Below are positions 20,268-64,000 of a DNA stretch of 64,000 nt, piece by piece. The stretch is from Candidatus Sungiibacteriota bacterium. Lineage in GTDB: Bacteria; Patescibacteriota; Minisyncoccia; Sungbacterales; SURF-37. The DNA lies in the NCBI GenBank assembly GCA_016186145.1, contig JACPMF010000004.1, forward strand, positions 345 through 64,344. The letters are read 5' to 3'. The notes beneath the pieces are model-generated. The model was not told where the DNA came from. It saw only the letters and a list, made by a program, of their open reading frames with translations, and did not search any database. The position numbers and the translations under genes were made by a program. How positions within the stretch are numbered: the first letter of the stretch is position 1; every line of letters begins with the position of its first letter.

Positions 20268-20379
20268 ATGATGATGGATCTTTATGATATTACCAACCTC
20301 GACCTTTTATGTTAAAAAAATAATTCGCGTCGACCAACTTATGGAGTACGCGGAGGAATAATGTTTGTTATTTTGGTTT

Positions 20380-20727: not shown

Positions 20728-20743
20728 ATTTCACTTCTCAATC

Positions 20744-21130: not shown

Positions 21131-21283
21131 TCAAAAATAACCGTGCCGACAAAATACAATAACGCCGCGATAAATCTTGTGTCTATTGCTTCCATATTGT
21201 TTAGTATAGCATAACAACCGACGTAAGTTATACACACCCAGCAACCGGAAACTCTAAACTCTAAAATTACCGGCCTAAAGAAT

Positions 21284-21748: not shown

Positions 21749-21853
21749 GCTATATCATCAGCGAATTGCGAATCGGTCGCGAATATGCGAATCTTACGAT
21801 TCATTATTATTCGCAAATTCGAAGGGATTCGTTATTCGCTGATTTATCTCATA
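21749..21853. promoter_or_regulatory. about 100-bp imperfect palindromic intergenic element rich in GCGAAT/ATTCGC hexamers (copy 1)
   Basis: atcagcgaattgcgaatcggtcgcgaatatgcgaatc...gattcgttattcgctgat; about 85% identical to 23716-23808; sits directly upstream of a minus-strand gene start. Confidence 0.5.
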
Positions 21854-23715: not shown

Positions 23716-23808
23716 GTTATATCATCAACGAATTACGAATCAATCGCGAATGTACGAATCTTACGACCCATTGCTATTCGTAAAAGATTCGTTATTCGTT
23801 GATTTGCT
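23716..23808. promoter_or_regulatory. GCGAAT/ATTCG-rich palindromic intergenic element (copy 2)
   Basis: atcatcaacgaattacgaatcaatcgcgaatgtacgaatcttacg...gattcgttattcgttgat; paralog of 21749-21853. Confidence 0.5.
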
Positions 23809-35222: not shown

Positions 35223-35720
35223 CTACGGAGTGACAAGGACTGTGAATCCGAGCTTGAGCGGCTCTCCGGCATTATTCTCTATAATTATTGCCCTATGAAT
35301 TCGACCGATCCCCGCAGGACCGTGGGCCGCCGGGTCAAAAACGACGTTAACAACGGCTTCCGCACCCGAAGCTATCGCTTCTTTAATGCTCGGCGAAAAT
35401 CCGTGCCCCGGCATGCCGTACGGACCGAAAACCTTACCCCCCACTTCAAGCGTGGCGCTGGTGCACATGCACGAGGTATACATTTTTTCTATAACCACCG
35501 ATTCTTGCCCGGTGTTTTTGATCCGAAACAAATGACTAACATTCCCGGCCGCCATCGAAACCGTACCAAAGTCAAAATCTTTCTCTTCTGCGCTTATTGC
35601 GCCGGTGGAACCCGAAACCGAAGGGGTGACAATACCACCCTCCGGAGAAGGACGCATGGCCCAAACAATCCCGGCAAAAGCAATTACTCCCGCCGCGATT
35701 CCAATAGTTATTTTATTCAT
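35223..35720 (-). CDS. DUF1573-like secreted/anchored protein
   Basis: FDFGTV...NTG motif; ATGAAT start directly abuts MITE copy C. Confidence 0.55.
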   Translation of the reverse strand: MNKITIGIAAGVIAFAGIVWAMRPSPEGGIVTPSVSGSTGAISAEEKDFDFGTVSMAAGNVSHLFRIKNTGQESVVIEKMYTSCMCTSATLEVGGKVFGPYGMPGHGFSPSIKEAIASGAEAVVNVVFDPAAHGPAGIGRIHRAIIIENNAGEPLKLGFTVLVTP

Positions 35721-35862
35721 CCCGTTAGAAGCAGATCGCGATTAAATATCCACAATCTGCCTTTTTAATTATTTAAGCGTTAATAAAGATTTGTGAATCC
35801 CGAATAATCTCACAAGCAATCGCACCTGCCTACCGACAGGCAGGGCTTCTAACGGGATTCAT
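35715..35862. repeat. MITE-like element, CCCGTTAGAAGC family (copy C)
   Basis: ATTCAT|CCCGTTAGAAGCagatcgcg...cagGGCTTCTAACGGG|ATTCAT; internal hairpin cctgcctaccgacaggcagg. Confidence 0.75.
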
Positions 35863-35953
35863 ATGTTTTTAGGTTAGAGATTGGAATTAACAACAAGCCC
35901 CTTTTAAGGGACAAAGAAAAGACGCTCGACAAGCTAGTTACTGGTAACTAGTT

Positions 35954-36364: not shown

Positions 36365-36584
36365 CCCGTTAGAGACCCGCCTGCCATCGCCTTTGTGTGA
36401 AGAAAGGAGGCGGTTCTATACTTTAACTTACTAATGTGTGATTTCTCAACTCTATAGAAGGGCATATGGCGGGCAGGTAGGACGCGGACGCACAAAACAC
36501 CCAACGCCCTATATTGTTATTGCTTACAAATTTTTACTCTTCTATAAAATTTTATTCGCGTCCGCGATCTCTAACGGGATTCAT
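36360..36584. repeat. MITE-like element, CCCGTTAGAG/CTCTAACGGG family (copy D, 225 bp)
   Basis: cTTCAT|CCCGTTAGAGacccgcctgcc...gcgtccgcgatCTCTAACGGG|ATTCAT. Confidence 0.7.
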
Positions 36585-36752
36585 CCCGTTAGAAGCAGAT
36601 CGCAATCGCATAATTGCTATCTGAATACATTATTGTTCTATATCCCAATAATATTTTATGAATCTCGTAACTTCTACAAGCGATCGCGCCTGCCTGCCTA
36701 CTGGCAGGCAGGCCGACAAGCAGGGCTTCTAACGGGATTCATAACCACAGTA
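36578..36752. repeat. MITE-like element, CCCGTTAGAAGC family (copy E, tandem to D, sharing the ATTCAT junction)
   Basis: ATTCAT|CCCGTTAGAAGCagatcgcaatcgc...gcctgcctgcctactggcaggcaggc...GGCTTCTAACGGG|ATTCAT. Confidence 0.75.
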
Positions 36753-37239: not shown

Positions 37240-37544
37240 TAGATATACATGGATACAAGCATTTTAATATGGATTTGGTGGTCATTATACGATAAAATCA
37301 GAACCTTTTTTGAGCAAAATCCCGATTGATTTACCTAGTCATTCGGGTAGTCATTCACCCTACCTCGGAATGACTACCTTGCGTTTCTAAATCTGCCCAT
37401 CATTCCTATCTTTTCTGACTTAACTACCTCTAAAATCAAAGTCCGACTTTCCTCCTCCGGAGGACTGGCTCGCCGCCCTGCTGGTCGGCTCGCTTGGTCG
37501 CCGAAATTCCTCCCCTCAAACCCCTCCTTCCGGCTCCTTTTCCC

Positions 37545-42731: not shown

Positions 42732-43032
42732 AGTTGATAACTATAGTATATGCACTTGCTAACTTTGGTGCTACATACTATAGTTAGCATAGTTTGAGGG
42801 GAGGAATTTCGGCGACCAAGCGAGCCGACCAGCAGGGCGGCGAGCCAGTCCTCCGGAGGAGGACTTTGTGGAAAACAGTAGAAGTGTGGAATGGGGGCGT
42901 AGCGTAGTGAAGTCGGACTTTGATTTTAGAGGTAGAAACGCAAGGTAGTCATTCCGAGGTAGGGTGAATGACTACCCGAATGACTAGGTAAATCAATCGG
43001 GATTTTGCTCAAACGGCGTCCGAACAGTCTCA

Positions 43033-43098: not shown

Positions 43099-43170
43099 TG
43101 GACCGGATGGGATTCGAACCCACGGTCTCCTCAATGCCATTGAGGCGCTTTACCACTAAGCTACCGGCCC
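43099..43170 (-). tRNA. tRNA-Ala (anticodon GGC)
   Basis: GGGCCGGTAGCTTAGTGGTAAAGCGCCTCAATGGCATTGAGGAGACCGTGGGTTCGAATCCCATCCGGTCCA. Confidence 0.85.
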
Positions 43171-47787: not shown

Positions 47788-49845
47788 ATGGAAATCCGAG
47801 ACAACGAACGACTCGCCTTCCACATTGGCGAAGTCGTGCGTGGAAGCAGAAAGTTTGAAAATGCTGCCACAAGCGTATCGCGGATGATTTTGGGACGAGG
47901 AGTAAAGAAAAGCACAAGAGCCGGGCAGACTACATTTGAGTTCGGCTTCTTCCGTGGAGGCCGCAAGCACGTTGTCGGCTGGTTCGATGAGATCAACGAC
48001 CTCGTTAACTTCGTGAAGGATGCCGCCGAAGGCGGGTCCTCGCAGGAAATGGCATTCGTGCTCGTTGGCGAACCCGGCAACGGAAAAACCTTCTTTGTTG
48101 AAAGCCTCTGCTCCGCGTACCGACAGTTCATTGCGCAACCGGAAAACAGAAGGTACACGTTCGAATTCGTCGGCTTGGAAGAACTGGGGCGCTACGGAAA
48201 TATTGGGGTCATCCAATCCCAAACCTTTGAAGACCCGCTCGTCTTGGCCATGAACCTTGGCGTGTCAAAAGATCAGAACAAGGAACGCCTGGCAAAGACG
48301 GGATTCGAAGACCACGACATCGACCGGCTCTATGGAGACTATCGCCCGCTTGGGGCATGCACGGAATTCATCTGGAACGATATTCTCACCCACTGCGACG
48401 GCGATGTGGAACGGGCGCTCGGATTCGTACGGATTGTGCCCGTACCGATCGCCGAAAGCCTGGGAACCGTTACCGGCAAATACTCGGCTCGCGACAAAAT
48501 CACTTCTTCCGCAACCGACCTCCTCGGAGAAGAAGACCTGTCGCGTCTTTTGAACCTTAAGGATACGTCCAATCCCTATAAGTACAACATCCGGAGGGGC
48601 GCGATCGCGCGTGTCGCCGGTGGCGGCATTCACTTTTCAGACGAGCTTTTCAAGAACAAAAAAGACCTTGTTCAGATTTACCTTCAGGTTATTCAGAACC
48701 GAACGATCGAACTCGACGGGTACCGCTGGCCCATTGATACGCTCATCATCGCAACCAGCAACAACTGGGAATACAACCGCTTTACCGGCGAACGAGAAGA
48801 GGCTCCGATCAAAGACCGCTGCCGCATTTGCTACGTTTCCCACAACACCGACTACAGGCTTCAACAAGTGCTGAACCGGTACGCGATCGGAAGCGAAAAG
48901 AAAGTCACCGTAACCGGCGAGGGGCTCCATGAGGATCCTAACCTTGTGTACGCCCTTTCGGTCGCCGTAACACTGACTCGTCTTCCGCATAGCGACAAGC
49001 TCACCCCGATTGAAATGATGAAGCTTGAAGCCGGAGAAACTGCCGGAGAGAAAAATGTCAAGACGCTGGCTGAAATAAAGGGAATGCTGAATGCCAACCC
49101 TGACGTTACAAAGCGTTGGGGGCAAAAAGGAATCGGACACCGCGGCCTCGGAAGAGTCGTCCAGATCATGCTTGCTATGCCGGAGACGCACGAAGGCAAA
49201 TGCCTTTTTGCGAAAGACTGCTTTGAGGCCGCTGAAAGAGAAATTCTTGACTATATCCCCGATGCGGTCGACCGCGAAAAATTCATGAAGGACCTGAAGG
49301 TTGCCCGGAAACTCTACCGAGGCGAGATCAAGACCTCGATCTTCAACGCTTATCGCGACGACCCGGAAGCCATCCGCAAGGATGTCATCGCCTATGTCAA
49401 CATGATCATCGGTATGGACTCCGACCAGCTGGGTCCGGACAAGATTTGGCGGTATCGTGATCCGCAAACCGGCGAGATGAAGGCGATCAAGGTTGAAGAA
49501 CGCTTCATCGACAGCGTTGAAAGCCGTCTCGGCCTTTCAACGAGAGAACGGAAAGAAACGTTCCGCACGTCCATCCGGAAGATTTACGGCCAGAAGGTTT
49601 CTACGGAACCGAACTACGACTTTATGGATAACGAGGCGCTCGTGAAAGCCGTAACCGACGTCCGCCTCGAATCCGACGTCGCCGGAGCCGCGAGTCTCGT
49701 CGGAGCGCTCGCAAACCGCGCGAATGAAGAAAACGTGCGCATCTACAACAGGATGATTGAAACCATGCTCAACAAGCTGAACTACTGCAGGACATGCGCG
49801 CAAAAAACCATTGAGTACTTCTGCGAAAAAACGGATGAGGACTAA
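47788..49845 (+). CDS. prkA: PrkA-family serine protein kinase (YeaG-like), paralog 1
   Basis: Walker A LVGEPGNGKT, 685 aa; collinear with YeaG (GGIHFSDE...IIATSN); strong Shine-Dalgarno AAGGAGG. Confidence 0.85.
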   Translation: MEIRDNERLAFHIGEVVRGSRKFENAATSVSRMILGRGVKKSTRAGQTTFEFGFFRGGRKHVVGWFDEINDLVNFVKDAAEGGSSQEMAFVLVGEPGNGKTFFVESLCSAYRQFIAQPENRRYTFEFVGLEELGRYGNIGVIQSQTFEDPLVLAMNLGVSKDQNKERLAKTGFEDHDIDRLYGDYRPLGACTEFIWNDILTHCDGDVERALGFVRIVPVPIAESLGTVTGKYSARDKITSSATDLLGEEDLSRLLNLKDTSNPYKYNIRRGAIARVAGGGIHFSDELFKNKKDLVQIYLQVIQNRTIELDGYRWPIDTLIIATSNNWEYNRFTGEREEAPIKDRCRICYVSHNTDYRLQQVLNRYAIGSEKKVTVTGEGLHEDPNLVYALSVAVTLTRLPHSDKLTPIEMMKLEAGETAGEKNVKTLAEIKGMLNANPDVTKRWGQKGIGHRGLGRVVQIMLAMPETHEGKCLFAKDCFEAAEREILDYIPDAVDREKFMKDLKVARKLYRGEIKTSIFNAYRDDPEAIRKDVIAYVNMIIGMDSDQLGPDKIWRYRDPQTGEMKAIKVEERFIDSVESRLGLSTRERKETFRTSIRKIYGQKVSTEPNYDFMDNEALVKAVTDVRLESDVAGAASLVGALANRANEENVRIYNRMIETMLNKLNYCRTCAQKTIEYFCEKTDED

Positions 49846-49930
49846 AAACTGAAACATGGTGTCCCTCTCTCTAGAGAGGGACTTATTTCCAAGGAAGTAT
49901 TTAAAAGCTATCTTAAAAATCATTTTTTCC

Positions 49931-50027
49931 GCGTTTTTCCGCGTAGCATTCCGCACTTATCCGCGGAGTCTCCGCGGAAGTGTGCAGATTGCAACGCAGA
50001 TTTATGCGGAAATTGAATTTTGAGATG
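49931..50027. repeat. about 95-bp inverted repeat, left arm, flanking the yeaH-like gene
   Basis: About 88% identical to the reverse complement of 51638-51728; contains the palindrome ccgcggagtctccgcgg. Confidence 0.7.
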
Positions 50028-50099
50028 AATTCTAGAATGAAATGCTTCTTAGGAAATGAGTAAAATCAATCTTTAAAATCTCTTTTTTCCGCATCTATA

Positions 50100-50212
50100 A
50101 TGCGAAACACGCTGATGATTTATGCGAATAAGACTAACTGTTCGCATAATTCGCATCATGTATTCGCATCGTTCGCATTGTAATGACACGGAAATTGAAA
50201 TTTGGGATGCTT
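50100..50212 (+). promoter_or_regulatory. array of TTCGCAT heptamers (2 inverted plus 4 direct) and a third partial copy of the repeat end, upstream of the yeaH-like gene
   Basis: aatgcgaaac, tatgcgaataag, then gttcgcataattcgcatcatgtattcgcatcgttcgcattg, then acggaaattgaaatttgggatg. Confidence 0.5.
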
Positions 50213-50268
50213 ACTCAGAGCACTTTTAAAATTTAAATTCCACACGACGAAAAGGGGGGAAGACCGCA

Positions 50269-51630
50269 ATGCGGAAAGACAGCAAGAAAGAAACGGCTGG
50301 AAATGAACACGCCACCAATCTTGATGTTCTCGGCATGGAACTCGCGCTTAAAGCGAGAATTGAAAGACGTATTGCGAACTGGAACGGACAAGGAGTTACC
50401 GGCGCTATCACCTCTTTGGAGTCCCTCCAGGACCTCTTGAAGAGGGACAAAGAAAGACAGCAGGACGGTTTTCCTTCCAAAATAAAATTCAGAAGGGTTC
50501 TCGCGGCAAATAATCGAGTAGTCAACGTTCCGTATGTCGACGAAGAAAAGCTGTTCCATGGACCATTTGAACCGAAGGGCGCAAAGCTTGTCGCCCAAAC
50601 CGCTGATTTTCTCGAGCTTCCGGACATTGACGAAGCCACCGGACACGGAGACGGCGATGTCGGCGACGTAATCGGTGAAGTGCCGATGCCCGGCAGGGGC
50701 GGTGGCGGCGATGACGGCGACGAAGGCGATGGAAACGGATCACAGCCCGGCGCCGGAGATGAAGACGCGGATCACGCGCTTGAAGAAGAAGCGTATGAGT
50801 TGGGAAGACGGCTGATGGAACAACTCAAGCTCCCCAACCTCAAAGACAAGGCAAGAAAAGTTCCTACCGATGAATACACCTACGATCTTACCGACCGCCA
50901 TCGCGGTTCGGGACAGGTTCTCGACAAAAAAGAAACATTGCGGCGCGTTGTCAAAACAAACCTGATTCTCGGCAGAATAGAAAAAGACGCCGTCGATACG
51001 AGAAAAATGATCGTCAGCCCGGGAGATCTGGTATTTCGAGTTCTTTCCCGAGAACGGGTCTGGAAAGCGCAAGCCTTGGCATGTTTTCTCCGAGACTACT
51101 CCGGTTCAATGTGGGGGGATCCTACAAAAGCCCTCGTATCCCAGCACCTTATGATTTACGCGTGGCTTCTGGTTCAATATGAAAAACGCGTTATCCCGCG
51201 ATTCTTCGTTCACGACCATAACGCGCGCGAAGTGAGCGCAAAAGAATACTTCGGACTCGGGTCTTACGGCGGAACACTTATCGCTTCCGGCTACAAAAAA
51301 ATCAACGAAGTAGTTGAGGGTGAAGGCCTTGAGAACGACTACAACATTTATGTCTTCCAAGGCACGGACGGCGATGACGGCGACGAAGGCGAATTCGCCC
51401 TTCCGGAGCTCAACAAAATCCTGAATTATGTAAGTCGCATGGGAGTCACCCTGTTTAAACATCCTTACTACACAAGCCAGGGCCAGAAAACAATCTTTGA
51501 GCAATACATTGAAAAAGGCGGCATCCTGGAAAGAAAGGATGTCTTCCGCATGCATACCATGCCGCGATATACCAACGTGACCGAAGAGATGAATGTTGAA
51601 GCGCTTCGCACGCTCATTGCCCAAGACTAA
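50269..51630 (+). CDS. DUF444 family protein (YeaH/YhbH-like, vWA-type), PrkA partner
   Basis: Position between prkA and spoVR; Gly/Asp-rich low-complexity segment typical of YeaH. Confidence 0.75.
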   Translation: MRKDSKKETAGNEHATNLDVLGMELALKARIERRIANWNGQGVTGAITSLESLQDLLKRDKERQQDGFPSKIKFRRVLAANNRVVNVPYVDEEKLFHGPFEPKGAKLVAQTADFLELPDIDEATGHGDGDVGDVIGEVPMPGRGGGGDDGDEGDGNGSQPGAGDEDADHALEEEAYELGRRLMEQLKLPNLKDKARKVPTDEYTYDLTDRHRGSGQVLDKKETLRRVVKTNLILGRIEKDAVDTRKMIVSPGDLVFRVLSRERVWKAQALACFLRDYSGSMWGDPTKALVSQHLMIYAWLLVQYEKRVIPRFFVHDHNAREVSAKEYFGLGSYGGTLIASGYKKINEVVEGEGLENDYNIYVFQGTDGDDGDEGEFALPELNKILNYVSRMGVTLFKHPYYTSQGQKTIFEQYIEKGGILERKDVFRMHTMPRYTNVTEEMNVEALRTLIAQD

Positions 51631-51637
51631 ACCTAAT

Positions 51638-51728
51638 CTCAAATTCAATTTCCGTGTAAATCCGCGTTGCAATCTGCGTGTTTCCGCGGAGACTCCGCGG
51701 ATCAATGCGGAATGCTACGCGGAAAAAC
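51638..51728. repeat. about 95-bp inverted repeat, right arm, flanking the yeaH-like gene
   Basis: See 49931-50027. Confidence 0.7.
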
Positions 51729-51829
51729 GCTGATATAGAACTTTTGAGATGGCTTCAAGAAGCCAAGGTTGAGCCGGGCCCCGACTCCGTCGGGGCTTTT
51801 CTATAACGGTTACAGAAAGAAAGGAGGAG

Positions 51830-53551
51830 GTGATGGAGCTTTTGAGCCAAAGCATGAAAGGTGAAATGGAAGCGTGCAAGAGGCGGGCAAGAGAAGCCGG
51901 TCTCGTGTTTCAAGACAACACCCTCGAATATGTCGTAACCAACCAAGACATGCTGGAGTTAAGCCCTCGAGTGATGATCCCGACCCTCTACGACTATTGG
52001 GCGTTTGACGTCGAAGTCCACCAAAACCGATGGATGTATGACATCCATCCGCACAATCCCTATGAGACCGTAATCAACACGAGACCTCCGATTTCCTTCT
52101 ACAACCAGGATAATGCGGACTGGTTTAACGTGATGATTTTCTATCATGTCCTGGGACACATCGACTTCTTCCAGAACAATACGTTCTTCCGCAGGACATG
52201 GGACGACGATTTCTGCGGGCAAGCCCTCGCGGATAAACGGCTCATCAACCGGATCCGCGCGGAACACGGAGACCAAAAACGATGGGTCGACTATCTGATT
52301 GAATTTGCGCGCGCTATCGACAATTTGGTGGGATACCACCAGGAGCTCAAAGAAGGCGACGAAGCGGAACAACCGGAAATTTTCGGCGCATTTTCTGAAA
52401 AAGCGGATTTTTACTTCGGGCAATTCCTGAAAGAGCTCTACGAAGCAAAAAGAGTCAAGCTCGAATTCTACTACGAAGAAATCGAACGCTACAACCGCTG
52501 CGTGAGGACATTCGGGAAAAAGCAGGGCGAACTCGCCTTCTTCGAAGACAACACGTTCAGAAGCAAGCTCCCCGAATTCAACGATGTATTCAAGAAACGG
52601 AAAGAAAAGGGCGAGAAACCGAAGCCCAAAGACATTTTTGAGCACCTCGCGGAGCGTTCGGACTCCCTGAACCAGGAAGAGAACCGGTGGATGAAAGAAG
52701 TGCTGCAGGTAATCAGAAGAACGTCTCTCTACTTCCAGCCGCAGATGAGAACTAAGATCGCGAACGAAGGTTGGGCAAGCTTATGGCACCAAACCCTCTT
52801 CATGGCAGATGAACGAATGAGCACCCATGAAGTAGATTTCGCAAGAGTAGATTCGGCGGTCACTTTTGATCCGCGGCTCGGAATCAATCCGTACGCCGCA
52901 GGCAAGCACCTTTTTGAATTCATCGAGGCGCTTGCCCGAAAGGGACGCCTTTCACCGGAATACCGTCTGCTCAAAAACATAGATACGCGAAAGAAGTACG
53001 ACCGGGATTGCGGACAAGCTGCCGGGCGAAAAGCGCTCTTTGAGGCACGGAGGCATTTTGACGACTATCTCCTGGTCAACTTCCTTTCTGATGAAGACTT
53101 CCAGGATTTTGTGGATGAACACAAGCTATTCATTGCAGGAGTCCGGCCAAGCCGCGAAAGATGGGACAGGGCTGAAATCTACATCAAATCGCGGAGCGGA
53201 AAAGAATACCGACGCCTTCTCAACCGAATGCTCTACCATCCGCCATATGTTGATTTCTCCGGAGCGAAAGCAAAAGACGGAGAACTGTATCTTGATCATG
53301 TGTACGAAGGCAGGTCGCTCTTCAGAAAGTACATCGGCCCGGTCCTAATCGGACTCGAATTCCTTTGGGGACGTCAGGTAAAACTCGAAACGACGGAATA
53401 TGAAGAAACCCAACCGAAAAACTGGTGGGAGTGGAGAAGTTCCCAGTACCAGCCGGAATACAAAAAAATCAGGGTCCTTTACGCCTGTGACAAGCGAAAA
53501 ATAACGAGAACGATTCTCGACCAAACTACCACGGATTCCTATGGAGGCTAG
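51830..53551 (+). CDS. spoVR: SpoVR/YcgB family protein
   Basis: N-terminal region with HVLGHIDFF-type motif; 573 aa. Confidence 0.85.
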   Translation: MMELLSQSMKGEMEACKRRAREAGLVFQDNTLEYVVTNQDMLELSPRVMIPTLYDYWAFDVEVHQNRWMYDIHPHNPYETVINTRPPISFYNQDNADWFNVMIFYHVLGHIDFFQNNTFFRRTWDDDFCGQALADKRLINRIRAEHGDQKRWVDYLIEFARAIDNLVGYHQELKEGDEAEQPEIFGAFSEKADFYFGQFLKELYEAKRVKLEFYYEEIERYNRCVRTFGKKQGELAFFEDNTFRSKLPEFNDVFKKRKEKGEKPKPKDIFEHLAERSDSLNQEENRWMKEVLQVIRRTSLYFQPQMRTKIANEGWASLWHQTLFMADERMSTHEVDFARVDSAVTFDPRLGINPYAAGKHLFEFIEALARKGRLSPEYRLLKNIDTRKKYDRDCGQAAGRKALFEARRHFDDYLLVNFLSDEDFQDFVDEHKLFIAGVRPSRERWDRAEIYIKSRSGKEYRRLLNRMLYHPPYVDFSGAKAKDGELYLDHVYEGRSLFRKYIGPVLIGLEFLWGRQVKLETTEYEETQPKNWWEWRSSQYQPEYKKIRVLYACDKRKITRTILDQTTTDSYGG

Positions 53552-53667
53552 TTTCTAAGACGCCGGCAATTCGTACGCGCGAAACCCGCAAGCGCGGGGC
53601 AGCGCATGCGAATTGCTGGCTTTTCTAAAAGACCGGCGGCCGTTAGTAAAACGAAAGGAGGAAAACC

Positions 53668-55869
53668 ATGCCCGCGGTGAAAGACGCCCTGACATATCTC
53701 GGATCTGAAATCGGAAAAACGGAAAAAGTGGTAACCTTAAGCTTCGAAGAATATCTTGACCTTGCCGCACGAGAACCGGGACGAGTATTGCGAAATATCT
53801 TCCAACTCTTTTACGACATGGTCAACGAATGCGTGGACAAAGGGACCGATGAGTACCCTGATGATCCGGAATCAATCGGTTTTGTAAAATACGATTGCAC
53901 CCGGCTTTTTGCCGAAAGAGCGGACAATCCATTCTTCGCCGACCGGCTTTTCGCGAACCGGTTCATACGCCAGATTGAAAGTCTTCGGCAGGGTTTCCAG
54001 CAAAACCGCATCTATGCCTACGAAGGCCCTTCCGGCTGCGGCAAAAGCACATTTCTGAACAATCTTTTGAGAACCTTTGTCGCTTACACCAACACAAGAG
54101 CGGGACAAATCTTCGAGCTTGTCTGGGAGATAGACGGAACTCTTTTTTCTCAAGATGCCGGAGCCTCCAAGAAACTGGTTGTTCCGTGCCCGAGCCATGA
54201 CTACCCGATTTTGGTCGTCCCGAAAGAACACCGGCCTGAATTCTTGAGAAAACTCCTCCCGGACGGGGAAGCCAAGCAAAAGATTCTCGGAAGCAAGGAA
54301 TACGAATGGCTTTTCACCGGAGAAGTGTGCACCGTTTGTAAGTCAATTTTTGAGCTCGCGCTCGAAAAACTCGGTTCTGTCGAAAAAGTATTCACAATGC
54401 TCCGGGCGAGAACCTATAAATTTGATCGGCGCCTCGGGGAAGGCATTAGCGTCTTCAATCCGGGCGACCAATCGGTATGGGTCGGAAACGACGGCAAACC
54501 GACCGGCGGCGTTTTCACCAACAAACCTCTACAACAAGATCTCGATCGGCTATTCGGCGCAGGAAGGGTCAAGTATGTCTTCTCTTCTCTCGCGCAGACC
54601 AACAACGGCATCCATGTGCTGATGGATGTAAAGGGATACAACAAGGCGCGGCTTCTCGAGCTTCACAATGTCATCAGCGAAGGCGTACATAAAGTGGGCG
54701 GTGTAGAAGAAGGCGTTACGGCCCTTTTCTTTGCCCTCATGAACCCGGAAGACAAACGAGTCATCACCGACGAGAAAATGGAGTCCTTTGAAGGAAGAAT
54801 CCAATACAACAAAATCCCCTATGTACTGGCACCCGACACCGAAGTGGATATCTATCGCAGCATTTTCGGATCCTCGATCGTGGCAAGCTTTCTCCCGCGA
54901 GTCCTTGAAAACTTCGCGCGCGTAATTATTTCTTCCCGCATGAACATGGAGTGCAAGCCGCTGAAAGAGTGGATCCCGGATGTCGCAAAATACAAAAAGT
55001 ACTGCGATGAAAGCGGCTTATTGCTTCGCATGGCAATCTATATGGGAGTTATCCCGAACTGGCTTTCCGAAGAAGACAGAAAAAAATTCGCCGCTCCGGT
55101 ACGCCGGGCATTGATCGCAGAGGGCGAAAACGAAGGTGGCAAAGGATTTTCCGGCAGAGACTCTTTGCGTCTCTTTGGCGAATTTTTCAGCCGCTACAGC
55201 GGGCGGCCAAGCTTGATTACCATGGAGAATGTTGAAGACTTCTTCAAGCACCGCATCGGAAGAGAACGTCGCGATGAATTCATACCGAAAAACTTCCTTG
55301 CGGCACTCATCGGAGCATATGATTATGCGATCTTGAACGAAATGAAAGAAGCCATGTACTTCTACAACAAAGAACGGATCTCGAGAGATATCCTGAACTA
55401 TCTCCATGCGGTCAATTACGAAGTCGAGACAAAGATACAATGCCCCTTTACCGGCGAAGAAATGGAAGTAACAATGGTCTTCCTCAAGCTTATGGCAAGC
55501 CGTATTGCCGGAAGAGAAATGAGCGATTCCGACGCCTTGAAATTCGCGCAGGATATCCAGAAGAAGTTTACGGTCGCTGCCGCCAAAGGAGGCGGCATAA
55601 CGGAAACAGAACTTTATAATGATCTTTTTGCCGCTTACGTGAGAAATCTTAAGGAAAAAGTGCTGCAACCGTTTGCCAAGAATGCAAATTTCCGCGAAGC
55701 CATCAGGGCGTTCGGAACAAGAGAGTTCGAAACGTTCGATACCCGGCTGAAAGAACACGTAATCGCTATGATCAAAAACATGATGGAGAAGTTCGGGTAC
55801 ACCGAACAGGGAGCAAAAGAAATCTGTCTTTACGTGATAGACAAAAACCTAGCAGAAAAGTATTCATAA
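53668..55869 (+). CDS. PrkA-family serine protein kinase, paralog 2
   Basis: Walker A YEGPSGCGKSTFLNNLL (compare YeaG LLGPVGGGKSSL); 733 aa; collinear PrkA core. Confidence 0.75.
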   Translation: MPAVKDALTYLGSEIGKTEKVVTLSFEEYLDLAAREPGRVLRNIFQLFYDMVNECVDKGTDEYPDDPESIGFVKYDCTRLFAERADNPFFADRLFANRFIRQIESLRQGFQQNRIYAYEGPSGCGKSTFLNNLLRTFVAYTNTRAGQIFELVWEIDGTLFSQDAGASKKLVVPCPSHDYPILVVPKEHRPEFLRKLLPDGEAKQKILGSKEYEWLFTGEVCTVCKSIFELALEKLGSVEKVFTMLRARTYKFDRRLGEGISVFNPGDQSVWVGNDGKPTGGVFTNKPLQQDLDRLFGAGRVKYVFSSLAQTNNGIHVLMDVKGYNKARLLELHNVISEGVHKVGGVEEGVTALFFALMNPEDKRVITDEKMESFEGRIQYNKIPYVLAPDTEVDIYRSIFGSSIVASFLPRVLENFARVIISSRMNMECKPLKEWIPDVAKYKKYCDESGLLLRMAIYMGVIPNWLSEEDRKKFAAPVRRALIAEGENEGGKGFSGRDSLRLFGEFFSRYSGRPSLITMENVEDFFKHRIGRERRDEFIPKNFLAALIGAYDYAILNEMKEAMYFYNKERISRDILNYLHAVNYEVETKIQCPFTGEEMEVTMVFLKLMASRIAGREMSDSDALKFAQDIQKKFTVAAAKGGGITETELYNDLFAAYVRNLKEKVLQPFAKNANFREAIRAFGTREFETFDTRLKEHVIAMIKNMMEKFGYTEQGAKEICLYVIDKNLAEKYS

Positions 55870-56255: not shown

Positions 56256-58070
56256 CTAATCCTTCACCAACTTTTCAAATTCTTCCCGCTCAATGGTTTC
56301 TTTCTCAATAAGAATTTTTGCAATTTGTTCAAACTTCCCACGGCGTCTTATCAAAATTTCTTTTGCGCGACGGTTTGCGGCGTCCACCAGTTTTTTAACT
56401 TCCTGGTCAATAAGCCGCGCTGTCTCTTCGGAATATTGACGACCGGTGGAAAAATCTCGGCCAAGAAAAACCGCCTCCTCCTTTTCACTCCAAACGCTTG
56501 GGCCTAATTTTTCCGACATACCAAACCGCGCGACAACGCTTCTCGCAATATCTGTTGCTTTTTCAAGATCATTGTGCGGTCCGGTGGTAACTTCATTAAA
56601 TATCAACTTCTCAGCGGCATATCCACCGAGAGCTACCGCCAACTCATCTAAAAACTGTGAATAAGAAAACAAATGGCGCTCCTCTATCGGAATCTTTAAC
56701 GTGTAGCCGCCGGCGCGTCCACGGGACACAATAGTAATTTTATGAACGGGATCTGCGTGCTCAACCGAGGCCGCAACCAGAGCATGCCCGGCTTCGTGGT
56801 AAGCCGTTATTTTTTTCTCCTCGACGGTCAGAAGACGCGACTTTCGTTCCGGTCCTAACATTACTTTCTCTATAGACTTTATAAGATCGATCTGCGAAAC
56901 CTTTTTCCGATTTTCGCGCGCGGCAAGAATCGCCGCCTCGTTCATAAGATTCTCAAGGTCCGCGCCGGAAAAACCAGGCGTGCGCTCGGCAATCACCCGT
57001 AGTCGCACATCATCCGTAAGCGGCTTATTCCGGCCGTGGATATGAAGAATTTCCTCCCGGCCATTAATATCCGGCAAATCCATCACCACCCTCCGGTCAA
57101 ACCTGCCGGGCCGCAAAAGCGCGGGATCCAAAACATCGGGTCGGTTGGTCGCGGCAATGACAATAACGCGATCGTCCGTTTCCATGCCGTCCATTTCAAC
57201 GAGAATTTGATTGAGCGTCTGCTCTCTCTCGTCATGTCCACCGCCAAGCCCGGCCCCACGCACCCTTCCTACCGCATCAAGCTCATCGACAAAAATTATC
57301 GCCGGCGCGGCTTTTTTGGCAAGACGAAAGAGGTCCCTGACTCTCGAAGCCCCTACCCCGACAAACATTTCAATAAATTCCGAAGCCGACATGTGAAAAA
57401 ACGGAACGCCGGCCTCGCCCGAAACCGCTTTTGCAAGAAGCGTTTTCCCGCATCCTGGCGGCCCCATTAACAAAACTCCTTTTGGAATTTTTGCGCCGAT
57501 ATCCAAAAACTTCTTGGGGTTCTTCAAAAAATCAACAACTTCTTTCAGCTCTTCTTTCGCCTCTTCCGCTCCCGCGACATCTTTGAAGGTAACCTGCTCT
57601 TTCTGGCCGGGCGAAATAAGCCGCGCCCGCGACTGGCCGAAGGTAAATGCCTGCATAGAGCCGCGCTGAACCTGGCGCGCCGTCCACCAGATAAAAAACC
57701 CGATCAACAAAATCGGTAAAAGAATCGGCAACAAAGCGCCGAGCCAAAACGAAATCCCGCCTTCGGTTTTCACTTCTATCGTAATCTCCCGAAGGCGTTC
57801 TTCCGAAACCCCGTAATCCCGCAGAATTTCAATCAAGCCGACCCCGGTTTCTTTTCGTGAAGTAACAATAACGCCGTCTTTTCGCAATGCCTCGAGCTGG
57901 CTTTCTGCAATGGTAATTTTTTGGAGTTCGCCTTGATTAACCGCGCTCACCAATTCAGAAAGCGAAACTTCTTTCTTCTCTTGCAGTGATTCGGTTATAA
58001 GGGCGTAAACCCCTGAAACCAAAACAAGAATGATAAGGGCGTAAATAATATGTTTGGAAAAATCGCGCAT
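56256..58070 (-). CDS. ftsH: ATP-dependent zinc metalloprotease FtsH
   Basis: N-terminal TM segments, AAA module (GPPGCGKT), HEAGHAL zinc-binding motif. Confidence 0.95.
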
Positions 58071-58189
58071 AATTAAAATCGTACTATATTTTCGTCACGC
58101 ATTCAAGAGGGCGACTCTTCTCCTGCAAAACGAAGGCCGATCAATAAAACGGAGATCGATCAATTCTCTCATTTCTCTCATCCCCGCCA

Positions 58190-58225
58190 AATAAAACCTA
58201 TCGGTTTTATTTGGCGGAAAAGGCA
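58190..58225. repeat. perfect 15-bp-stem palindrome ccgccaaataaaacc-tatc-ggttttatttggcgg; a related half copy at 58850-58880
   Basis: These flank the 58235-58831 gene. Confidence 0.45.
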
Positions 58226-58234
58226 AAACCCGTA

Positions 58235-58831
58235 TTACCAGACTCTGAAATGACGGCGGATGGCAACCTCCCCATTCCCGAGTGACGAGGTTTCGAAAAA
58301 GCAAACATGGCGATTAATATCTAAAAATTGAACAAGAAAATCAATTTCATCCTCACAGGGGTAGGGGTACGCGAAAACGCTTTTTTGTAAACCGAATAGC
58401 CCCAAATCTTTGAGCCGGTCGCTAAAAATTCTCCTCTCCTTCTTCTTATTTTCCGGGATGTCGAAAATGACCACCCGCCACTTCTTATCCCACCGCCGCG
58501 GTTTTTCCGGTAACCGCAACGCATCAAATTCAAATTTACGCAGTTTCTTCCGACCGCTTTCCGTAATTACAATATATGTTTCATTTCCGCGTTGTTCGTA
58601 TTCCACATATCTTCTCTTCCGTAGACGCTCAATACCCCTTTGGAGCTGCCATTGCCCGTATTCGCGACGCAATCGCGCCGGATCACTCCGAAGAATCGGC
58701 GCAAGCAATATTCCCATATTCGGCGCCACCAACATTGATGCCACAACCGCACCGCCGCCGACAATCTTCAAAATATCCAGCGCAATAGATCCGTAATGAA
58801 TATCTCTCCCCATACAAAACGAACCTATCAA
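58235..58831 (-). CDS. membrane-anchored winged-helix plus Cas2-fold-like (PaaX-C-like) domain protein
   Basis: KKWRVVIFDIPENKKKERRIFSDRLKDLGLFGLQKSVFAYP resembles the Cas2/PaaX C-terminal pattern; N-terminal TM. Confidence 0.4.
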   Translation of the reverse strand: MIGSFCMGRDIHYGSIALDILKIVGGGAVVASMLVAPNMGILLAPILRSDPARLRREYGQWQLQRGIERLRKRRYVEYEQRGNETYIVITESGRKKLRKFEFDALRLPEKPRRWDKKWRVVIFDIPENKKKERRIFSDRLKDLGLFGLQKSVFAYPYPCEDEIDFLVQFLDINRHVCFFETSSLGNGEVAIRRHFRVW

Positions 58832-59064
58832 ACACTTTCTATCGTGTCAAATAAGTCCTATAGGATCTATTTGGCGGATGTGAAAGTTCGAAAAAAACGG
58901 AGCTCTTTCGACGGAGTTCTTGCGGAGGAAATTAAAAAACGGGCTCTGGCGAATCGCTCGATAGCGATCACCAGAACCCGCGCTTGTCCTCCGAAGCGCC
59001 TGTGCGCGTAGGAGGATGTTACTTGCCCGCCCCGCTTAGAAGCGGGACGGGGCTAATTGTTGAA

Positions 59065-60405
59065 CTACTCGTCGTCCTGGCGGCTCGAATCGCCGCGGCG
59101 ACCGCGACCACCCTTGCCACCCTTGCGACCCTTGGCCTGGCGGGGTCCCCGGTCCTCGTCGGACCGGTGGTAGCGCGGCGTCTGCGGCTTGAACTGCCGC
59201 TGGTCGCCGGCCGGGGTCTGCGACTGGAACTTCCAGCCGCCGGCCTTCCGGAAGAGAACCATCAGGAAGACCATCGGCCTCCCGTCTTCCATGGCCTGCA
59301 TGCCGTCGAAGCTGTACTTGAGCTTCCACTGGAAGAGCGTTGCGGCTCGCGCCTCACGCTCCTCTGTCGCCGGCTTCGCAGTGAACCGGGCGAGCCCAGG
59401 CCACACCGAGCCCACCGCGCCGAGGAGCTCGCCCTTGGCGATCCCCTGGCCGTCCACGCCGTGGTACCGAACCCACCCGGTGCCCTCGAGCTGATAGCCC
59501 GACCGCGTGTCTTTGAAGTCTTGCTCACGCTTGAGCACGAACTCCACGACATCACCGATGTTGAGCTGGCCGGCGTCCAGATCGGCGAGCGTCTTGCCCT
59601 CGACGGGCTTGAACTGCTCGCGGTACTTCGCGAGAAGCGCTTCGCTCGCCTCACGCTTCTCAGCGTAAGTCTCCTTGGTCACCCTCTGATGCGTGACCCA
59701 CGCGCCGATCAGCGTATCCGCGACCTTCGGGTCATACCCTTCGGGCTTCGGCTCGTCCTTCCCGAAGTACCTCTTCGCGAAGTGCCGATAGGCTCTGGTG
59801 TTGCCGACGACCGGCAACGACCAGATCGTCTGCGGCTTCGCGGGCGGCCGCGGGGCATCCGGGATGTCCGCCTCTTCGTCGCCCTTCTCGACGACGGCGC
59901 CGTACATGGCGTCGTAGTCGGCCTTCTCGGCCTCGTACTTCACCATCTTCGGCTTCCATTCGTCCCAGGCCGTGCGATTGGCCTGCTTTTCCGCATCGTC
60001 CACCCCACGCATGATGCCGCGGGCGATGAGGTCGTCGATGACCTCGTGCGCCTCGGGCAAGGTGTAGAGCCCGGCGATGAACGCCGAGTACACCTCCGGA
60101 AGCGAACGGATCTTGGCCATCACGACGGCGATCTGCTCGCGGAACGACACCGCTGCGGCATCGTCGTGCTTCTTCTCGGCCTCGCGGAGGCCGTTCTTCC
60201 TCTCGGCAAGAGCCGTGAGGAACTTTTCCGTCAGCGCATCCCGCTTGACTTCGTCAGCGAGGACGCGCTTCACCGGCGCCGGCTTCGGCGTTCCGGTGGT
60301 CACCTGCTGGGCCGCTGGCCGCGGCCTCTCCACGATCGCGATCGTCGGCAGTGCGACGACCGCTTCGAACGCCTTCTCGATCTCCTTCAGGTCCATCAGG
60401 TCCAT
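59065..60405 (-). CDS. hypothetical protein with a C-terminal RG-rich tail, in a high-GC (about 65%) island
   Basis: 446-aa ORF with normal amino-acid composition; the overlapping plus-strand ORF is R/L/P-rich antisense junk. Confidence 0.5.
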   Translation of the reverse strand: MDLMDLKEIEKAFEAVVALPTIAIVERPRPAAQQVTTGTPKPAPVKRVLADEVKRDALTEKFLTALAERKNGLREAEKKHDDAAAVSFREQIAVVMAKIRSLPEVYSAFIAGLYTLPEAHEVIDDLIARGIMRGVDDAEKQANRTAWDEWKPKMVKYEAEKADYDAMYGAVVEKGDEEADIPDAPRPPAKPQTIWSLPVVGNTRAYRHFAKRYFGKDEPKPEGYDPKVADTLIGAWVTHQRVTKETYAEKREASEALLAKYREQFKPVEGKTLADLDAGQLNIGDVVEFVLKREQDFKDTRSGYQLEGTGWVRYHGVDGQGIAKGELLGAVGSVWPGLARFTAKPATEEREARAATLFQWKLKYSFDGMQAMEDGRPMVFLMVLFRKAGGWKFQSQTPAGDQRQFKPQTPRYHRSDEDRGPRQAKGRKGGKGGRGRRGDSSRQDDE

Positions 60406-60447
60406 CTTTCCCCTCCTGGGAATGGCGCATTGCTACGCCGGTTATGT

Positions 60448-61044
60448 TTAGGTTTCAGCCAAGAGAGCGCGAATTTCTTCGGCACCCCGCTCGGCTCTCA
60501 TCAAAAGCTCGCTCTTCCCCCCTTTCGGTTCTTCCGACACGCAATCACCGTTTGACCGGCAATGCGCATCGAGTTTTTCGATTTCCTCTTCGGACAACCT
60601 GTAAGCGCCCTTCCCAAGAGGAAAGAGCACCAGCTCTTCCGCCCAGCACTCCGCAAACCTCCCGTTGTTGATAAAAAGCGTTGCCTTGCCGAGCTGGTCA
60701 ACTTCCCACACCCCGACAATGCGTTGCCAGTCGCTATCAAAAAAAACTGCGTGTTCGCCAATCGGAGATCGTGAAGAACCGACTATATCCTTTGCCTTGT
60801 AAGCAGAAGAAGGTACGAAAAAGTTCTCACCGACGAAACCGAGGACCTGCTCGTTCGGAACATCCTCGTCCGAATAACCTCTCGGGCCGAGAAACCGAAC
60901 CTTGACGGACTCGCCGCCGTTGTCATCAGAAAAAAGAAGGAATCCAAACCTTCGTCCTTCCACTCCCTTGGTTGCCGTTCCGCAATGCGCGCAAACCTCG
61001 TCGGCTGGCACGCGGACGGCGACCCGCTTCAGTCCGTGAACCAT
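60448..61044 (-). CDS. hypothetical protein (GC-rich island, second gene)
   Basis: 198 aa; CAHCG motif. Confidence 0.45.
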   Translation of the reverse strand: MVHGLKRVAVRVPADEVCAHCGTATKGVEGRRFGFLLFSDDNGGESVKVRFLGPRGYSDEDVPNEQVLGFVGENFFVPSSAYKAKDIVGSSRSPIGEHAVFFDSDWQRIVGVWEVDQLGKATLFINNGRFAECWAEELVLFPLGKGAYRLSEEEIEKLDAHCRSNGDCVSEEPKGGKSELLMRAERGAEEIRALLAET

Positions 61045-62025: not shown

Positions 62026-62065
62026 CGCCGCGCCTTCGCGGGAAGCCACAATTTTTTCGCCGCCA
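62026..62065. repeat. 40-bp perfect inverted repeat (left arm), CGCCGCGCCTTCGCGGGAAGCCACAATTTTTTCGCCGCCA
   Basis: Reverse complement is identical to 63961-64000 at the window end; this GC-rich repeat sits in AT-rich DNA. Confidence 0.75.
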
Positions 62066-62067
62066 AA

Positions 62068-63681
62068 TCAAATAATTTTAGCTTCTCTCAAAACCTGTCT
62101 AACGCTTTTATTACAGTTATGAATTTTCTCCAAAGCCAGCTTTGCTTGTTTCTTGCTGATAAAGCCCACCGTAACTTCGCGCGCTAGACGCGTAGCGTCT
62201 GGATGAAAACCGAGCATTCGTCTTGCTTTATTTTCTGCCGCTTTCGCAAAAAGACAAGAGTTCGCATTTGATTCAATCAACCTTTCGCCTCGTGGAATTT
62301 TCCACCCCAATTTCCTTAAAATCTTCTCCGTATCTTTAATTGTTCTTTGCAAAAGAAAGGGCAGGTGAACGATATAGACAGGCGGCTTGTTTTTGAATGG
62401 TTGTAATTTCCGAGTTGCCGAAAAAACAAACTTTTTTGACTCACCATCTTGGCTTAATCCAGCCCATTCGTTAATACCTAAAATAATCACACCAACACCA
62501 TGTTTTTGCGCCTCTCCGTAGTATGAACGAATAACAAGCCGCCTGCATAATTGGCAAGTTCTTATAAATGGAATTTTGTGCTGACATTTTGCCGAATAGT
62601 GCCTCCTGCCCTCCACATACCATTTTCTAAATTTTTCTTTTAACTCTAGCGAATCACGTTCATCGTATAAGTCAGCCGTTTTTTCGAAACAAATACGATC
62701 AACTGGTCGCATATATTTTCTCGCATCGATTTTTTCGTAATCAACATCAAGCTGTTTTGCTACTTGTTTTGCCCTCTGAAAAATATGTTTTGGGTAATAG
62801 CGTGTATCAAGTGAAAAAGCCAAAGGCGTAAATCCCATACGTTTAGCTTCATGGAGAGTGGCAGTGCTGTCTTTGCCGCCAGATATACCAACCATTGCAT
62901 CGTATTTGCCACGACCAGAACTCCTAAGCGAAAGTAGAAATTCTAACTCTTTTCTCAAATGTTCTTTGCTAAAGTTTTTTTCGTATCTTTCACAAACATC
63001 ACATAAACCGGATTTCTCTATCGTGCTAGACATATTAGTGCTGACATTTACGCATTTCTTGCACTCTACCGCTTCAACCAATGCTTTGATTTGATTAACG
63101 ATTTCTTTCTTGATTGTAACAGCCGTGTTGAAAGAAATATGAGCGATTTTTTCTACTTTATTTGTCGAAAAAAGACGCTCCTCAATTTGCCGTTCTTTTT
63201 CTGCTTCTTTTTGTGAGAAACTTTCTCGCTTGGAGACACGCACCGAAAGATGTTTGTCGGGAGTTTTCAAATAAACAACAAGGTAGCCATTCTTTTTGAA
63301 ATGAGTTGAATTTTTATAACCCCTGATTCCTGCGATTACAATAAACTTTTTAGAAAATGTTTTTTGATGAATATGAATTATTGTTTTCGCAATAACCGAC
63401 GAGGAATAACGGTTTTTGAGATGAGAGAAAAAATTGCGAGCTTCCTCGCGATCAATTTTCTGTTTAATCTTTTTCCCGTAGAGTTTATTTATTTGTTGGA
63501 TAAAACCACTTTCATTTTCTGACAACTTTTCCTTAATGGAAGCGGCGGGGTTTATAACCGTATTAAACGCCTCGATATATTTTGCATCAAGAAAAGAAGC
63601 CAAGAACAATTTGGCTATGGTTGTCTTGCCGCTTCCGGGGGCTCCAAAAACCGCTATTCCTTTGTATTTTCTTTTTATCAT
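62068..63681 (-). CDS. fusion protein: N-terminal P-loop kinase-like domain plus zinc ribbon plus TtcA/TtuA(Ncs6)-like PP-loop ATPase
   Basis: Walker A GAPGSGKTT; CKKC...CDVC zinc ribbon; PP-loop VGISGGKDS; then CQLCRRL (compare TtcA CSLCSRL). Confidence 0.65.
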   Translation of the reverse strand: MIKRKYKGIAVFGAPGSGKTTIAKLFLASFLDAKYIEAFNTVINPAASIKEKLSENESGFIQQINKLYGKKIKQKIDREEARNFFSHLKNRYSSSVIAKTIIHIHQKTFSKKFIVIAGIRGYKNSTHFKKNGYLVVYLKTPDKHLSVRVSKRESFSQKEAEKERQIEERLFSTNKVEKIAHISFNTAVTIKKEIVNQIKALVEAVECKKCVNVSTNMSSTIEKSGLCDVCERYEKNFSKEHLRKELEFLLSLRSSGRGKYDAMVGISGGKDSTATLHEAKRMGFTPLAFSLDTRYYPKHIFQRAKQVAKQLDVDYEKIDARKYMRPVDRICFEKTADLYDERDSLELKEKFRKWYVEGRRHYSAKCQHKIPFIRTCQLCRRLVIRSYYGEAQKHGVGVIILGINEWAGLSQDGESKKFVFSATRKLQPFKNKPPVYIVHLPFLLQRTIKDTEKILRKLGWKIPRGERLIESNANSCLFAKAAENKARRMLGFHPDATRLAREVTVGFISKKQAKLALEKIHNCNKSVRQVLREAKII

Positions 63682-63935
63682 ACGAAAAAATCTAGACTTT
63701 TCTTGTAGAGTCGCGCAAAAGCCTTAAGTTCTACAACATCAACTCTACGCTCTCCACGCTCGATTTTTGAAATATATGATTGAGGCTTGCCTAGCTTTTG
63801 CGCGACGTCTTCTTGTCTCAAACCAGCGTTTTCTCGCGCTTTTCGTAGGTTTTCCACAACCTTTTTGTATTCTGCTCCGTAAATACTCTTTGGCATATTG
63901 AATATATCATAGTATCCTATTGTGGTATATACCAA
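63678..63935 (-). CDS. XRE-family HTH regulator
   Basis: LRKARENAGLRQEDVAQKLGKPQSYISKIERGERRVDVVELKAFARL; 4-bp overlap with the downstream gene. Confidence 0.6.
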   Translation of the reverse strand: MVYTTIGYYDIFNMPKSIYGAEYKKVVENLRKARENAGLRQEDVAQKLGKPQSYISKIERGERRVDVVELKAFARLYKKSLDFFV

Positions 63936-63960
63936 AACGGGTTATGCTTATTTTATGAAT

Positions 63961-64000
63961 TGGCGGCGAAAAAATTGTGGCTTCCCGCGAAGGCGCGGCG
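63961..64000. repeat. 40-bp perfect inverted repeat (right arm, truncated by the window end)
   Basis: See 62026-62065. Confidence 0.75.

Follow-up and report, generated by a model that had tools for sequence, protein, structure and literature searches.

Palindromic repeats on both sides of a yeaH-like gene in a Parcubacteria-group bacterium are probably insertions of a MITE/REP-like repeat family

In a 64-kb stretch of a Candidatus Sungiibacteriota genome (contig JACPMF010000004.1), a yeaH-like gene lying between prkA-like and spoVR-like genes is enclosed by two long inverted repeats. This whole stretch, referred to below as the window, is the sequence examined here and the only part of the source genome that was searched for copies of the repeat. 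The question raised by the locus is whether the two repeats constitute a device dedicated to yeaH, i.e. a giant stem-loop clamping its message or a pair of recombination sites, as suggested by the original prediction, or whether they belong to a repeat family that happens to have settled on both sides of this gene. We consider it probable that the left repeat (element A) and the right repeat (element C) are two insertions of a previously undescribed family of palindromic repeats, similar to transposable elements of the miniature inverted-repeat type (MITEs) and repetitive extragenic palindromic (REP) sequences, each of which forms a local hairpin. In the best reading of the data, yeaH is flanked merely because two neighbouring spacers each received an insertion, and the arrangement is not a yeaH-specific device. 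This reading is built on the sequence identity of A and C, on the ability of each of them to fold on itself, on the absence of the repeat from related operons and on a homologue found at an unrelated locus of another organism.

The A/C inverted repeat is real and far beyond chance. A repeat search defined two arms (49928-50020 and 51641-51733) of 93 nt, which are 89% complementary and are placed 1620 nt apart, and BLAST comparison within the window aligned one arm with the other at 90% identity over 90 nt (E = 2.5e-26), the longest exact shared stretch being 25 nt. The predicted inverted repeats of about 95 bp were therefore confirmed, and so was the palindrome that had been noticed within each arm: the core CCGCGGAGWCTCCGCGG occurs exactly twice in the 64 kb (49961-49977 and 51684-51700), and the 19-mer TTCCGCGTAGCATTCCGCA also has two exact occurrences in the window, one per strand. 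Moreover, each whole arm is an imperfect palindrome (71-74% self-complementary in the repeat search), and because of this A and C also match each other in direct orientation (71%). Together with its flanks, the homologous unit comprises about 120-130 nt. The two elements and their cores are as follows:

49905-50035, plus strand: element A, the left arm, an imperfect palindrome of ~120-130 nt (covariance model R1, 159 bits)
49961-49977, no strand assigned: apical core palindrome CCGCGGAGTCTCCGCGG of element A (exact match; apical stem in the fold)
51626-51755, minus strand: element C, the right arm, of the same family but in the opposite orientation (R1, 141.9 bits on the minus strand)
51684-51700, no strand assigned: apical core palindrome CCGCGGAGACTCCGCGG of element C (exact match)

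The covariance model R1 was built from three full copies, namely A, C and a metagenomic copy described below (the L068 copy). The family defined in this way is ~120 nt long and non-coding, with terminal inverted repeats placed around a TCCGCG/CGCGGA interior. In the interior of A and C, TCCGCG-like motifs recur every 10-12 nt in one arm of the palindrome (successive motifs of the left arm stand 10, 12 and 10 nt apart, leaving 3-5 nt between them), and their CGCGGA-like complements occupy the other arm, while an outer stem (ATCTYAAAA... / ...TTTTGAGAT) is paired in the folds of both elements. Six-frame translation of the elements (120-150 nt) revealed only short incidental frames. The translated open frames of the repeat produced no scoring match in a protein database, from which a 31-aa ORF called on the Logan contig L028 (see below) was also absent.

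Coordinates and Pfam gene calls agree that A lies in the prkA-yeaH spacer (49846-50268, 423 nt) and C in the yeaH-spoVR spacer (51631-51832, about 200 nt), as had been proposed. The claim that the repeats bracket yeaH precisely is correct for the 3' side, where element C begins at or beside the yeaH stop codon, but does not hold for the 5' side, where about 235-250 nt lie between the end of element A and the yeaH ATG, and this interval contains a further element (B). The third, partial copy of the repeat end, which had been reported close to the start of yeaH, was found at 50186-50209, and it represents the 3' terminus of this separate element. Element B also carries a promoter-like site:

50064-50212, plus strand: element B, a hairpin of ~140 nt (R1, 25.3 bits, E = 0.002, full length)
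50072-50101, plus strand: TTTAAA-18-TATAAT, a promoter-like site located between A and yeaH, at the 5' end of B (10 of 12 positions match in a consensus scan)

Repeat search and alignment showed that B and A share both termini (TTAAAAnTC..TTTTTTCCGC and CGGAAATTGAAnTTTGnGATG), but differ in their interiors, which in B contain TTCGCAT/ATGCGAA motifs. That A and B have only their termini in common supports a MITE-like structure of the family. Element B folds as a hairpin at -41.1 kcal/mol (z = -4.3). Scanning of the 64-kb window with R1 yielded nothing convincing beyond A, B and C. The promoter between A and yeaH should be regarded as putative: it was recognized by its consensus, and shuffled sequences contain sites of this kind just as often as the region does.

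Each of the two arms is predicted to fold independently of the other. A alone forms one long hairpin of -51.7 to -58.9 kcal/mol (z = -6.4) and C alone, on the plus strand, a long hairpin of -56.7 to -57.5 kcal/mol (z = -9.2); in both cases the stem consists of blocks of 4-9 bp parted by small internal loops. The hairpin of C gains ~10 kcal/mol on the transcribed strand (-57.5 kcal/mol, versus -47.8 kcal/mol for the opposite strand), because G-U pairs replace C-A mismatches there. Weakly, this asymmetry points to the local RNA hairpin as the form that is tolerated or selected. When A, C and the L068 copy are compared, the predicted pairs are standard in 92.7% of cells, as against 18-55% when the partners are slid, and two pairs are compensatory, with both sides changed. 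As three sequences do not beat a shuffle control here, we count this as conservation of the pairing and not as proof of covariation.

A further copy of the repeat was found outside the window, in another organism. A full-length homologue is present on the metagenome contig Ga0213870_1036796 (L068; 1644 bp) at positions 775-905 (nhmmer E = 3e-27; 146 bits with the covariance model), and it is 80-82% identical to A and C. It nearly fills a 136-nt spacer between the gene of a 141-aa membrane protein and a PBP_dimer (FtsI-like) gene, being placed upstream of this penicillin-binding protein (PBP) gene, and it folds into the same hairpin (-55.2 kcal/mol, z = -6). No partner copy occurs within about 750 nt on either side. 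The L068 copy therefore stands alone at an unrelated locus, and we conclude that the repeat family is not tied to yeaH. The specific association with yeaH assumed in the original prediction is contradicted in kind by this copy, whose position in an unrelated spacer is that expected of a dispersed element. A separate, very stable nested palindrome was observed in another intergenic region of the same contig (1390-1475), where a 170-nt stretch folds at -70.9 kcal/mol; the L068 genome shares the habit of carrying long intergenic palindromes.

A metagenome scan with the terminal motif common to A, B and C returned 66 loci, 65 of which were chance matches and one of which was L068, and a 21-mer of the core had 0 matches in JGI metagenomes. 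The 19-mer core gave 27 single matches among GTDB representative genomes, all in unrelated GC-rich genomes; none of them extend past the core, and they were rejected as chance. The same applies to the single viral contig matching the terminal motif, in which neither BLAST with the window nor the covariance model revealed extended similarity to the element. The PBP fragment of L068, used as a query for longer contigs or an empty site, had one match of 42% identity, which led nowhere.

Comparison with related operons provides further evidence. The genes of the cluster in the window are:

47788-49845, plus strand: prkA-like gene, 685 aa (Pfam PrkA, AAA_PrkA)
50269-51630, plus strand: yeaH-like DUF444 gene, 453 aa (Pfam DUF444)
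51833-53551, plus strand: spoVR-like gene, 572 aa from ATG (Pfam SpoVR; exact product on Logan contig L101)
53668-55869, plus strand: second prkA-like paralogue, prkA2 (Pfam PrkA; four-gene order kept in relatives)

Eight orthologous clusters (loci L029-L033 and L102-L106), whose YeaH proteins are 73-77% identical, were compared with the window. The order prkA-yeaH-spoVR-prkA2 is kept in all eight as far as the contigs reach. The spacers of the relatives measure 63-143 nt (prkA-yeaH) and 10-42 nt (yeaH-spoVR), as against 423 and about 200 nt in the window, and BLAST, nhmmer and the covariance model found the repeat in none of the eight. Since the spacers of the relatives are compact and repeat-free, as spacer alignments also show, A, B and C are probably lineage-specific insertions; the divergence of the relatives is too great for the point of insertion to be fixed. 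A special tie of the repeats to yeaH is thus not supported by the orthologous operons either, which manage without any copy.

The best YeaH homologues detected in a protein search (74-77% identical) come from metagenome-assembled genomes of the Parcubacteria group / Patescibacteria, and the host is a Parcubacteria-group bacterium of the Candidate Phyla Radiation (CPR). Look-ups of the YeaH and PrkA products by exact sequence returned no record, and that of SpoVR was successful only when the protein was read from the ATG. The yeaH gene itself holds an exact 24-nt duplicate, CGGCGATGACGGCGACGAAGGCGA, at 50706-50729 and 51369-51392, which sits within 9-nt periodic GAYGGCGAY runs coding for acidic Asp/Gly-rich stretches.

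Taken together, these results favour the following scenario. Copies of the repeat were probably inserted into the spacers on both sides of yeaH in one Parcubacteria lineage, with the diverged element B beside A, and would have spread by transposition in trans. Each copy, once transcribed, may form its own long hairpin co-transcriptionally, and this hairpin would modulate at most read-through, mRNA stability or processing between the genes of the operon, in the manner of ERIC, Correia and REP sequences. In the present cluster, it would loosen the otherwise tight linkage of yeaH and spoVR.

Several points weigh against this interpretation. The known copies amount to three full ones and a diverged one, of which three are clustered within 2 kb, and the 64-kb window is all that was covered of the source genome. 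No target-site duplication is definable for the elements, there being no consistent flanking direct repeat at A, C or the L068 copy, and no transposase with matching ends was found among the 45 ORFs of the window that were scanned against Pfam. The covariation deduced from three sequences fails a shuffle control (108 of 500 shuffles), and the optimum fold of a co-transcript is a long-range A:C duplex, not two local hairpins. Finally, a purely selfish-element model does not account for the roughly helical spacing of the TCCGCG motifs.

Known repeat systems offer several precedents. Like MITEs, whose size is under about 300-500 bp, elements A, B and C are small and non-coding, and have terminal inverted repeats common to all members; their dispersal to unrelated loci is partly shown, by the L068 copy. 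Repeat units of the ERIC/IRU type are considered MITE-like small mobile sequences (PMC2759123, PMC2229807). These 127-bp imperfect palindromes resemble A and C in their length (~120 nt), in their organization as one long non-coding palindrome, in their occurrence in transcribed operon spacers in either orientation and in the long RNA hairpin that is predicted for them. However, they have no sequence relation to A and C, which reside in a CPR bacterium, and to our knowledge a short motif repeated every 10-12 nt is not a described feature of ERIC. The Correia elements of Neisseria (CREE/NEMIS) form RNA hairpins that are bound or cleaved by RNase III, and their ends can create promoters (PMC2649163). 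They are similar to the elements described here in having terminal inverted repeats, a size of about 100-150 nt and a location beside genes, and B carries its promoter-like TTTAAA-18-TATAAT at the 5' end; by contrast, there is no sequence similarity, and neither the TA target duplication nor a site for integration host factor (IHF) could be shown for A, B or C.

REPINs are hairpin-forming, non-autonomous intergenic units for which copying in trans is assumed (PMC3116915, PMC3337134), and the tags of REP sequences have been defined as GTAG and CGTC (PMC3733652). A and C carry GTAG (CGCGTAGC), whereas the corresponding position of the L068 copy reads CGCGTGTT, so that the tag is not kept by all members of the family, and no Y1 transposase (RAYT) was detected in the 45 scanned ORFs. 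Scanning of the whole window against Rfam passed only tRNAs; within 49800-51900 all matches had E values above 0.5 and scores far below the gathering threshold. A, B and C behave like small repeats of the ERIC/IRU, Correia (CREE) or REPIN type (PMC2759123, PMC2229807, PMC2649163, PMC3116915, PMC10969869).

Periodic repeats of another kind, the TIGR arrays associated with Tas proteins, are common in CPR bacteria and, like A and C, place short repeats at regular intervals in non-coding DNA (PMC12045711). A TIGR array consists of 36-nt units with two alternating repeats of 8-12 nt (edge and loop), 9-nt spacers and box C/D motifs, and is adjacent to a tas gene encoding a Nop domain (PMC12045711). 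This candidate was rejected: A and C have a period of 10-12 nt with gaps of 3-5 nt and form one palindrome, and there is no Nop-domain match in the scanned ORFs.

An alternative explanation, which we judge unlikely, is a long-range RNA clamp. According to this explanation, co-transcribed A and C would pair as a ~90-bp double-stranded RNA, looping out B, the ribosome-binding site (RBS) and the yeaH ORF, and the stem would serve as an RNase III substrate or a translation block, uncoupling yeaH from prkA and spoVR in the way that rRNA processing stems act. Such a structure is physically feasible: the A:C duplex is predicted at -168.4 kcal/mol versus -116.4 kcal/mol for the two local hairpins (-58.9 and -57.5), and the minimum free energy structure of the 1984-nt RNA corresponding to 49846-51829 pairs all 88 paired positions of A with C. 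The apical loops (GAGUCUC and GAGACUC) are complementary, and kissing between them could nucleate the duplex. The similarity of A and C to each other (89-90%) also exceeds that of either to the L068 copy (80-82%), but higher similarity of the two is equally expected from recent copying within the genome. On the other hand, each arm folds once it is made, 1.6 kb before its partner, and yeaH is translated in between; the L068 member of the family is single, and the arrangement is seen in none of the eight relatives. The rRNA stems cut by RNase III are an analogy for the clamp only: in them, too, distant complementary stretches on the two sides of a gene can pair as an extended duplex, but they are conserved with the gene they flank, whereas A and C are absent from the eight relatives and each of them folds on itself. 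The giant stem-loop originally envisaged around yeaH is therefore physically feasible, while a yeaH-specific role for it is unsupported, given the L068 copy, the relatives, the local folding and a terminator-like structure upstream of A.

The latter structure deserves separate consideration, since A is placed downstream of this conserved hairpin and upstream of the promoter-like site, which also speaks against the clamp. A further hairpin lies between C and spoVR:

49861-49882, plus strand: terminator-like hairpin followed by UUAUUU, after prkA and upstream of A (consensus scan and fold)
51775-51800, plus strand: GC-rich hairpin located between C and spoVR (GGGCCCCGAC/GUCGGGGCUU, with UUUUCU after it; sequence and fold; absent from relatives)

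The hairpin and U-run after prkA are kept, with covarying stems, in all eight relatives (L029-L031 and L102-L106), the compensating stem changes including GTCCCTCTC/GAGAGGGAC, ATCCCTCC/GGAGGGAT and ACCCCTCT/AGAGGGGT, and the hairpin is followed by a conserved GGTATTGACAA in 6 of 8 relatives (not in L104-L106). In view of its conservation in the eight relatives, at least partial insulation of prkA from yeaH is probable. The two genes probably represent separate or attenuated transcription units in this clade. With the conserved hairpin upstream of it and the promoter-like site downstream, element A may not be on the yeaH transcript at all. A further terminator-like hairpin with a U-run was observed after spoVR (53562-53625; -45 kcal/mol, z = -5.1). 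The spacers of the relatives (10-42 nt for yeaH-spoVR and about 11-150 nt for spoVR-prkA2) are too short for either of the extra hairpins; in this lineage, predicted structure has been added to every spacer of the cluster.

Another explanation, which we regard as improbable, interprets the elements as protein-binding arrays. Four plus four convergent TCCGCG/CGCGGA half-sites, placed about one helical turn apart, would act as operator-like DNA sites, or a bulged RNA hairpin would be bound along one face, and such modules would have been recruited to several operons, including the stress-response cluster. The spacing of the motifs (10, 12 and 10 nt) is visible in the sequence, and sibling hairpins in the window are built alike from TTCGCAT (element B) and from GCGAAT (21739-21840 and 23706-23812, both abutting start codons). 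However, no binding protein was identified, and TCCGCG and GCGAAT hexamers are not enriched in the intergenic DNA of the window beyond the elements. The differences in the arrays from element to element speak against a regulator common to all of them, and the positions of the elements vary (operon spacers, after stop codons, in either orientation). The two GCGAAT hairpins are direct repeats of each other (82%) with GCGAAT/ATTCG arrays, i.e. they are constructed like A and B with another motif, and they abut the ATG of two minus-strand genes, encoding a type IV secretion system (T4SS) pilin-like protein (21284-21748) and a methyltransferase (23170-23715). The first of these belongs to a row of four tandem minus-strand genes (19932-21748), all matching the T4SS pilin (TrbC/VirB2-like) family.

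A combination of both ideas, which is speculative and to which we give little credence, would be the co-option of the A/C pair after its insertion. Read-through from prkA would zip A and C into ~90-bp double-stranded RNA via their apical loops, and RNase III would excise a message containing B, the RBS and yeaH. In a more general form, this view would make the CPR hairpins whose internal loops recur every 10-12 nt a family of RNA or DNA scaffolds to which proteins bind, as opposed to selfish DNA. If such co-option were true, the dosage of yeaH would depend on read-through of the terminator.

The weakest of the explanations, and a very improbable one, is that the repeats are recombination sites and that inversion of the segment between them, comprising B with its promoter-like site and yeaH, switches expression: inverted repeats of 93 nt do flank a single gene, and C contains break points of Logan contigs that stem from the same strain or a near-identical one, but no recombinase, invertase or transposase domain was found by Pfam in the 45 scanned ORFs of the 64-kb window, the longest exact match of the arms is 25 nt, and the same repeat is single at the other locus. 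Two contigs, from independent runs, are relevant here: L101 (SRR12113424), 100% identical to 51696-55077, and L028 (SRR12113420), 99.7% identical to 50162-51711. The orientation data comprise a single informative junction, that of L028 across the C core: this contig starts out in yeaH, crosses the core and continues with GGATCAATGCGGA, an outer sequence specific to C, which is the configuration of the window, whereas GGATAAGTGCGGA would be expected in a flipped state. The ends of L028 and L101 fall inside B and inside the C core, which suggests that the elements break short-read assemblies, via repeats or via hairpin-related loss of coverage. The view of yeaH as an invertible or mobile segment is therefore not supported. 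An integron attC site was also rejected: ends of the GTTRRRY type are not seen by eye, the relatives have an orthologous yeaH in the same gene order, and no integrase was found.

The interpretation of A, B and C as inserted repeats can be placed in the context of the remaining sequence of the window, in which housekeeping genes (dprA, topA, relA/spoT, parB, gyrA, S1 and ftsH) were recognized by Pfam and about 22% of the DNA lies outside a rough ORF map, a proportion that is high for a CPR genome. A second MITE-like family has three members (9986-10116, 35715-35863 and 36579-36743) of ~130-165 nt each, with variable interiors enclosed by identical terminal inverted repeats of ~21 nt (GATTCATCCCGTTAGAAGCAG ... 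CTTCTAACGGGATTCAT). An imperfect palindrome of ~160 nt (12045-12205), with the apex AACGGAAATTCG...CGAATTTCCGTT, is located between the relA/spoT-like gene and parB, and is a weak match to the covariance model (E = 0.45). Taking into account these other palindromic and terminal-repeat families, A, B and C fit a genome that accumulates such insertions.

Other features of the window are of a different nature. Inverted repeats of ~210 nt (37309-37521 and 42792-43013; 98-100% identical) surround a 5.3-kb island of low GC content (39-41%), which codes for a DUF4357 protein, an ORF product of 446 aa without known function and a DndB-like protein, and adjoins a tRNA gene (43099-43170); the island looks like a defence or mobile cassette. 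A 51-nt inverted repeat (62026-62076 and 63950-64000; 94%) encloses the ORFs 62068-63681, with weak matches to P-loop AAA-type NTPases and QueC, and 63678-63935; its right arm runs off the end of the window and may be longer. The block 58000-61000 is GC-rich (53-56% versus about 48% overall) and contains several of the most stable predicted local structures of the window; its longest ORF (58984-60555) is without a Pfam match, and another (58235-58831) carries a PaaX/Cas2-like domain.

The genomes of CPR/Patescibacteria are small and streamlined, and we found no literature on MITE/REP-like repeats in them. The present result removes a tempting but unsupported story, in which yeaH is controlled by an RNA clamp or an invertible switch of its own. 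What is seen instead is a tightly packed and conserved stress-response cluster whose spacers are widened by several palindromic or terminal-inverted-repeat families, and genes that almost adjoin one another in relatives are here separated by the strong hairpins and terminator-like structures that the repeats bring in.

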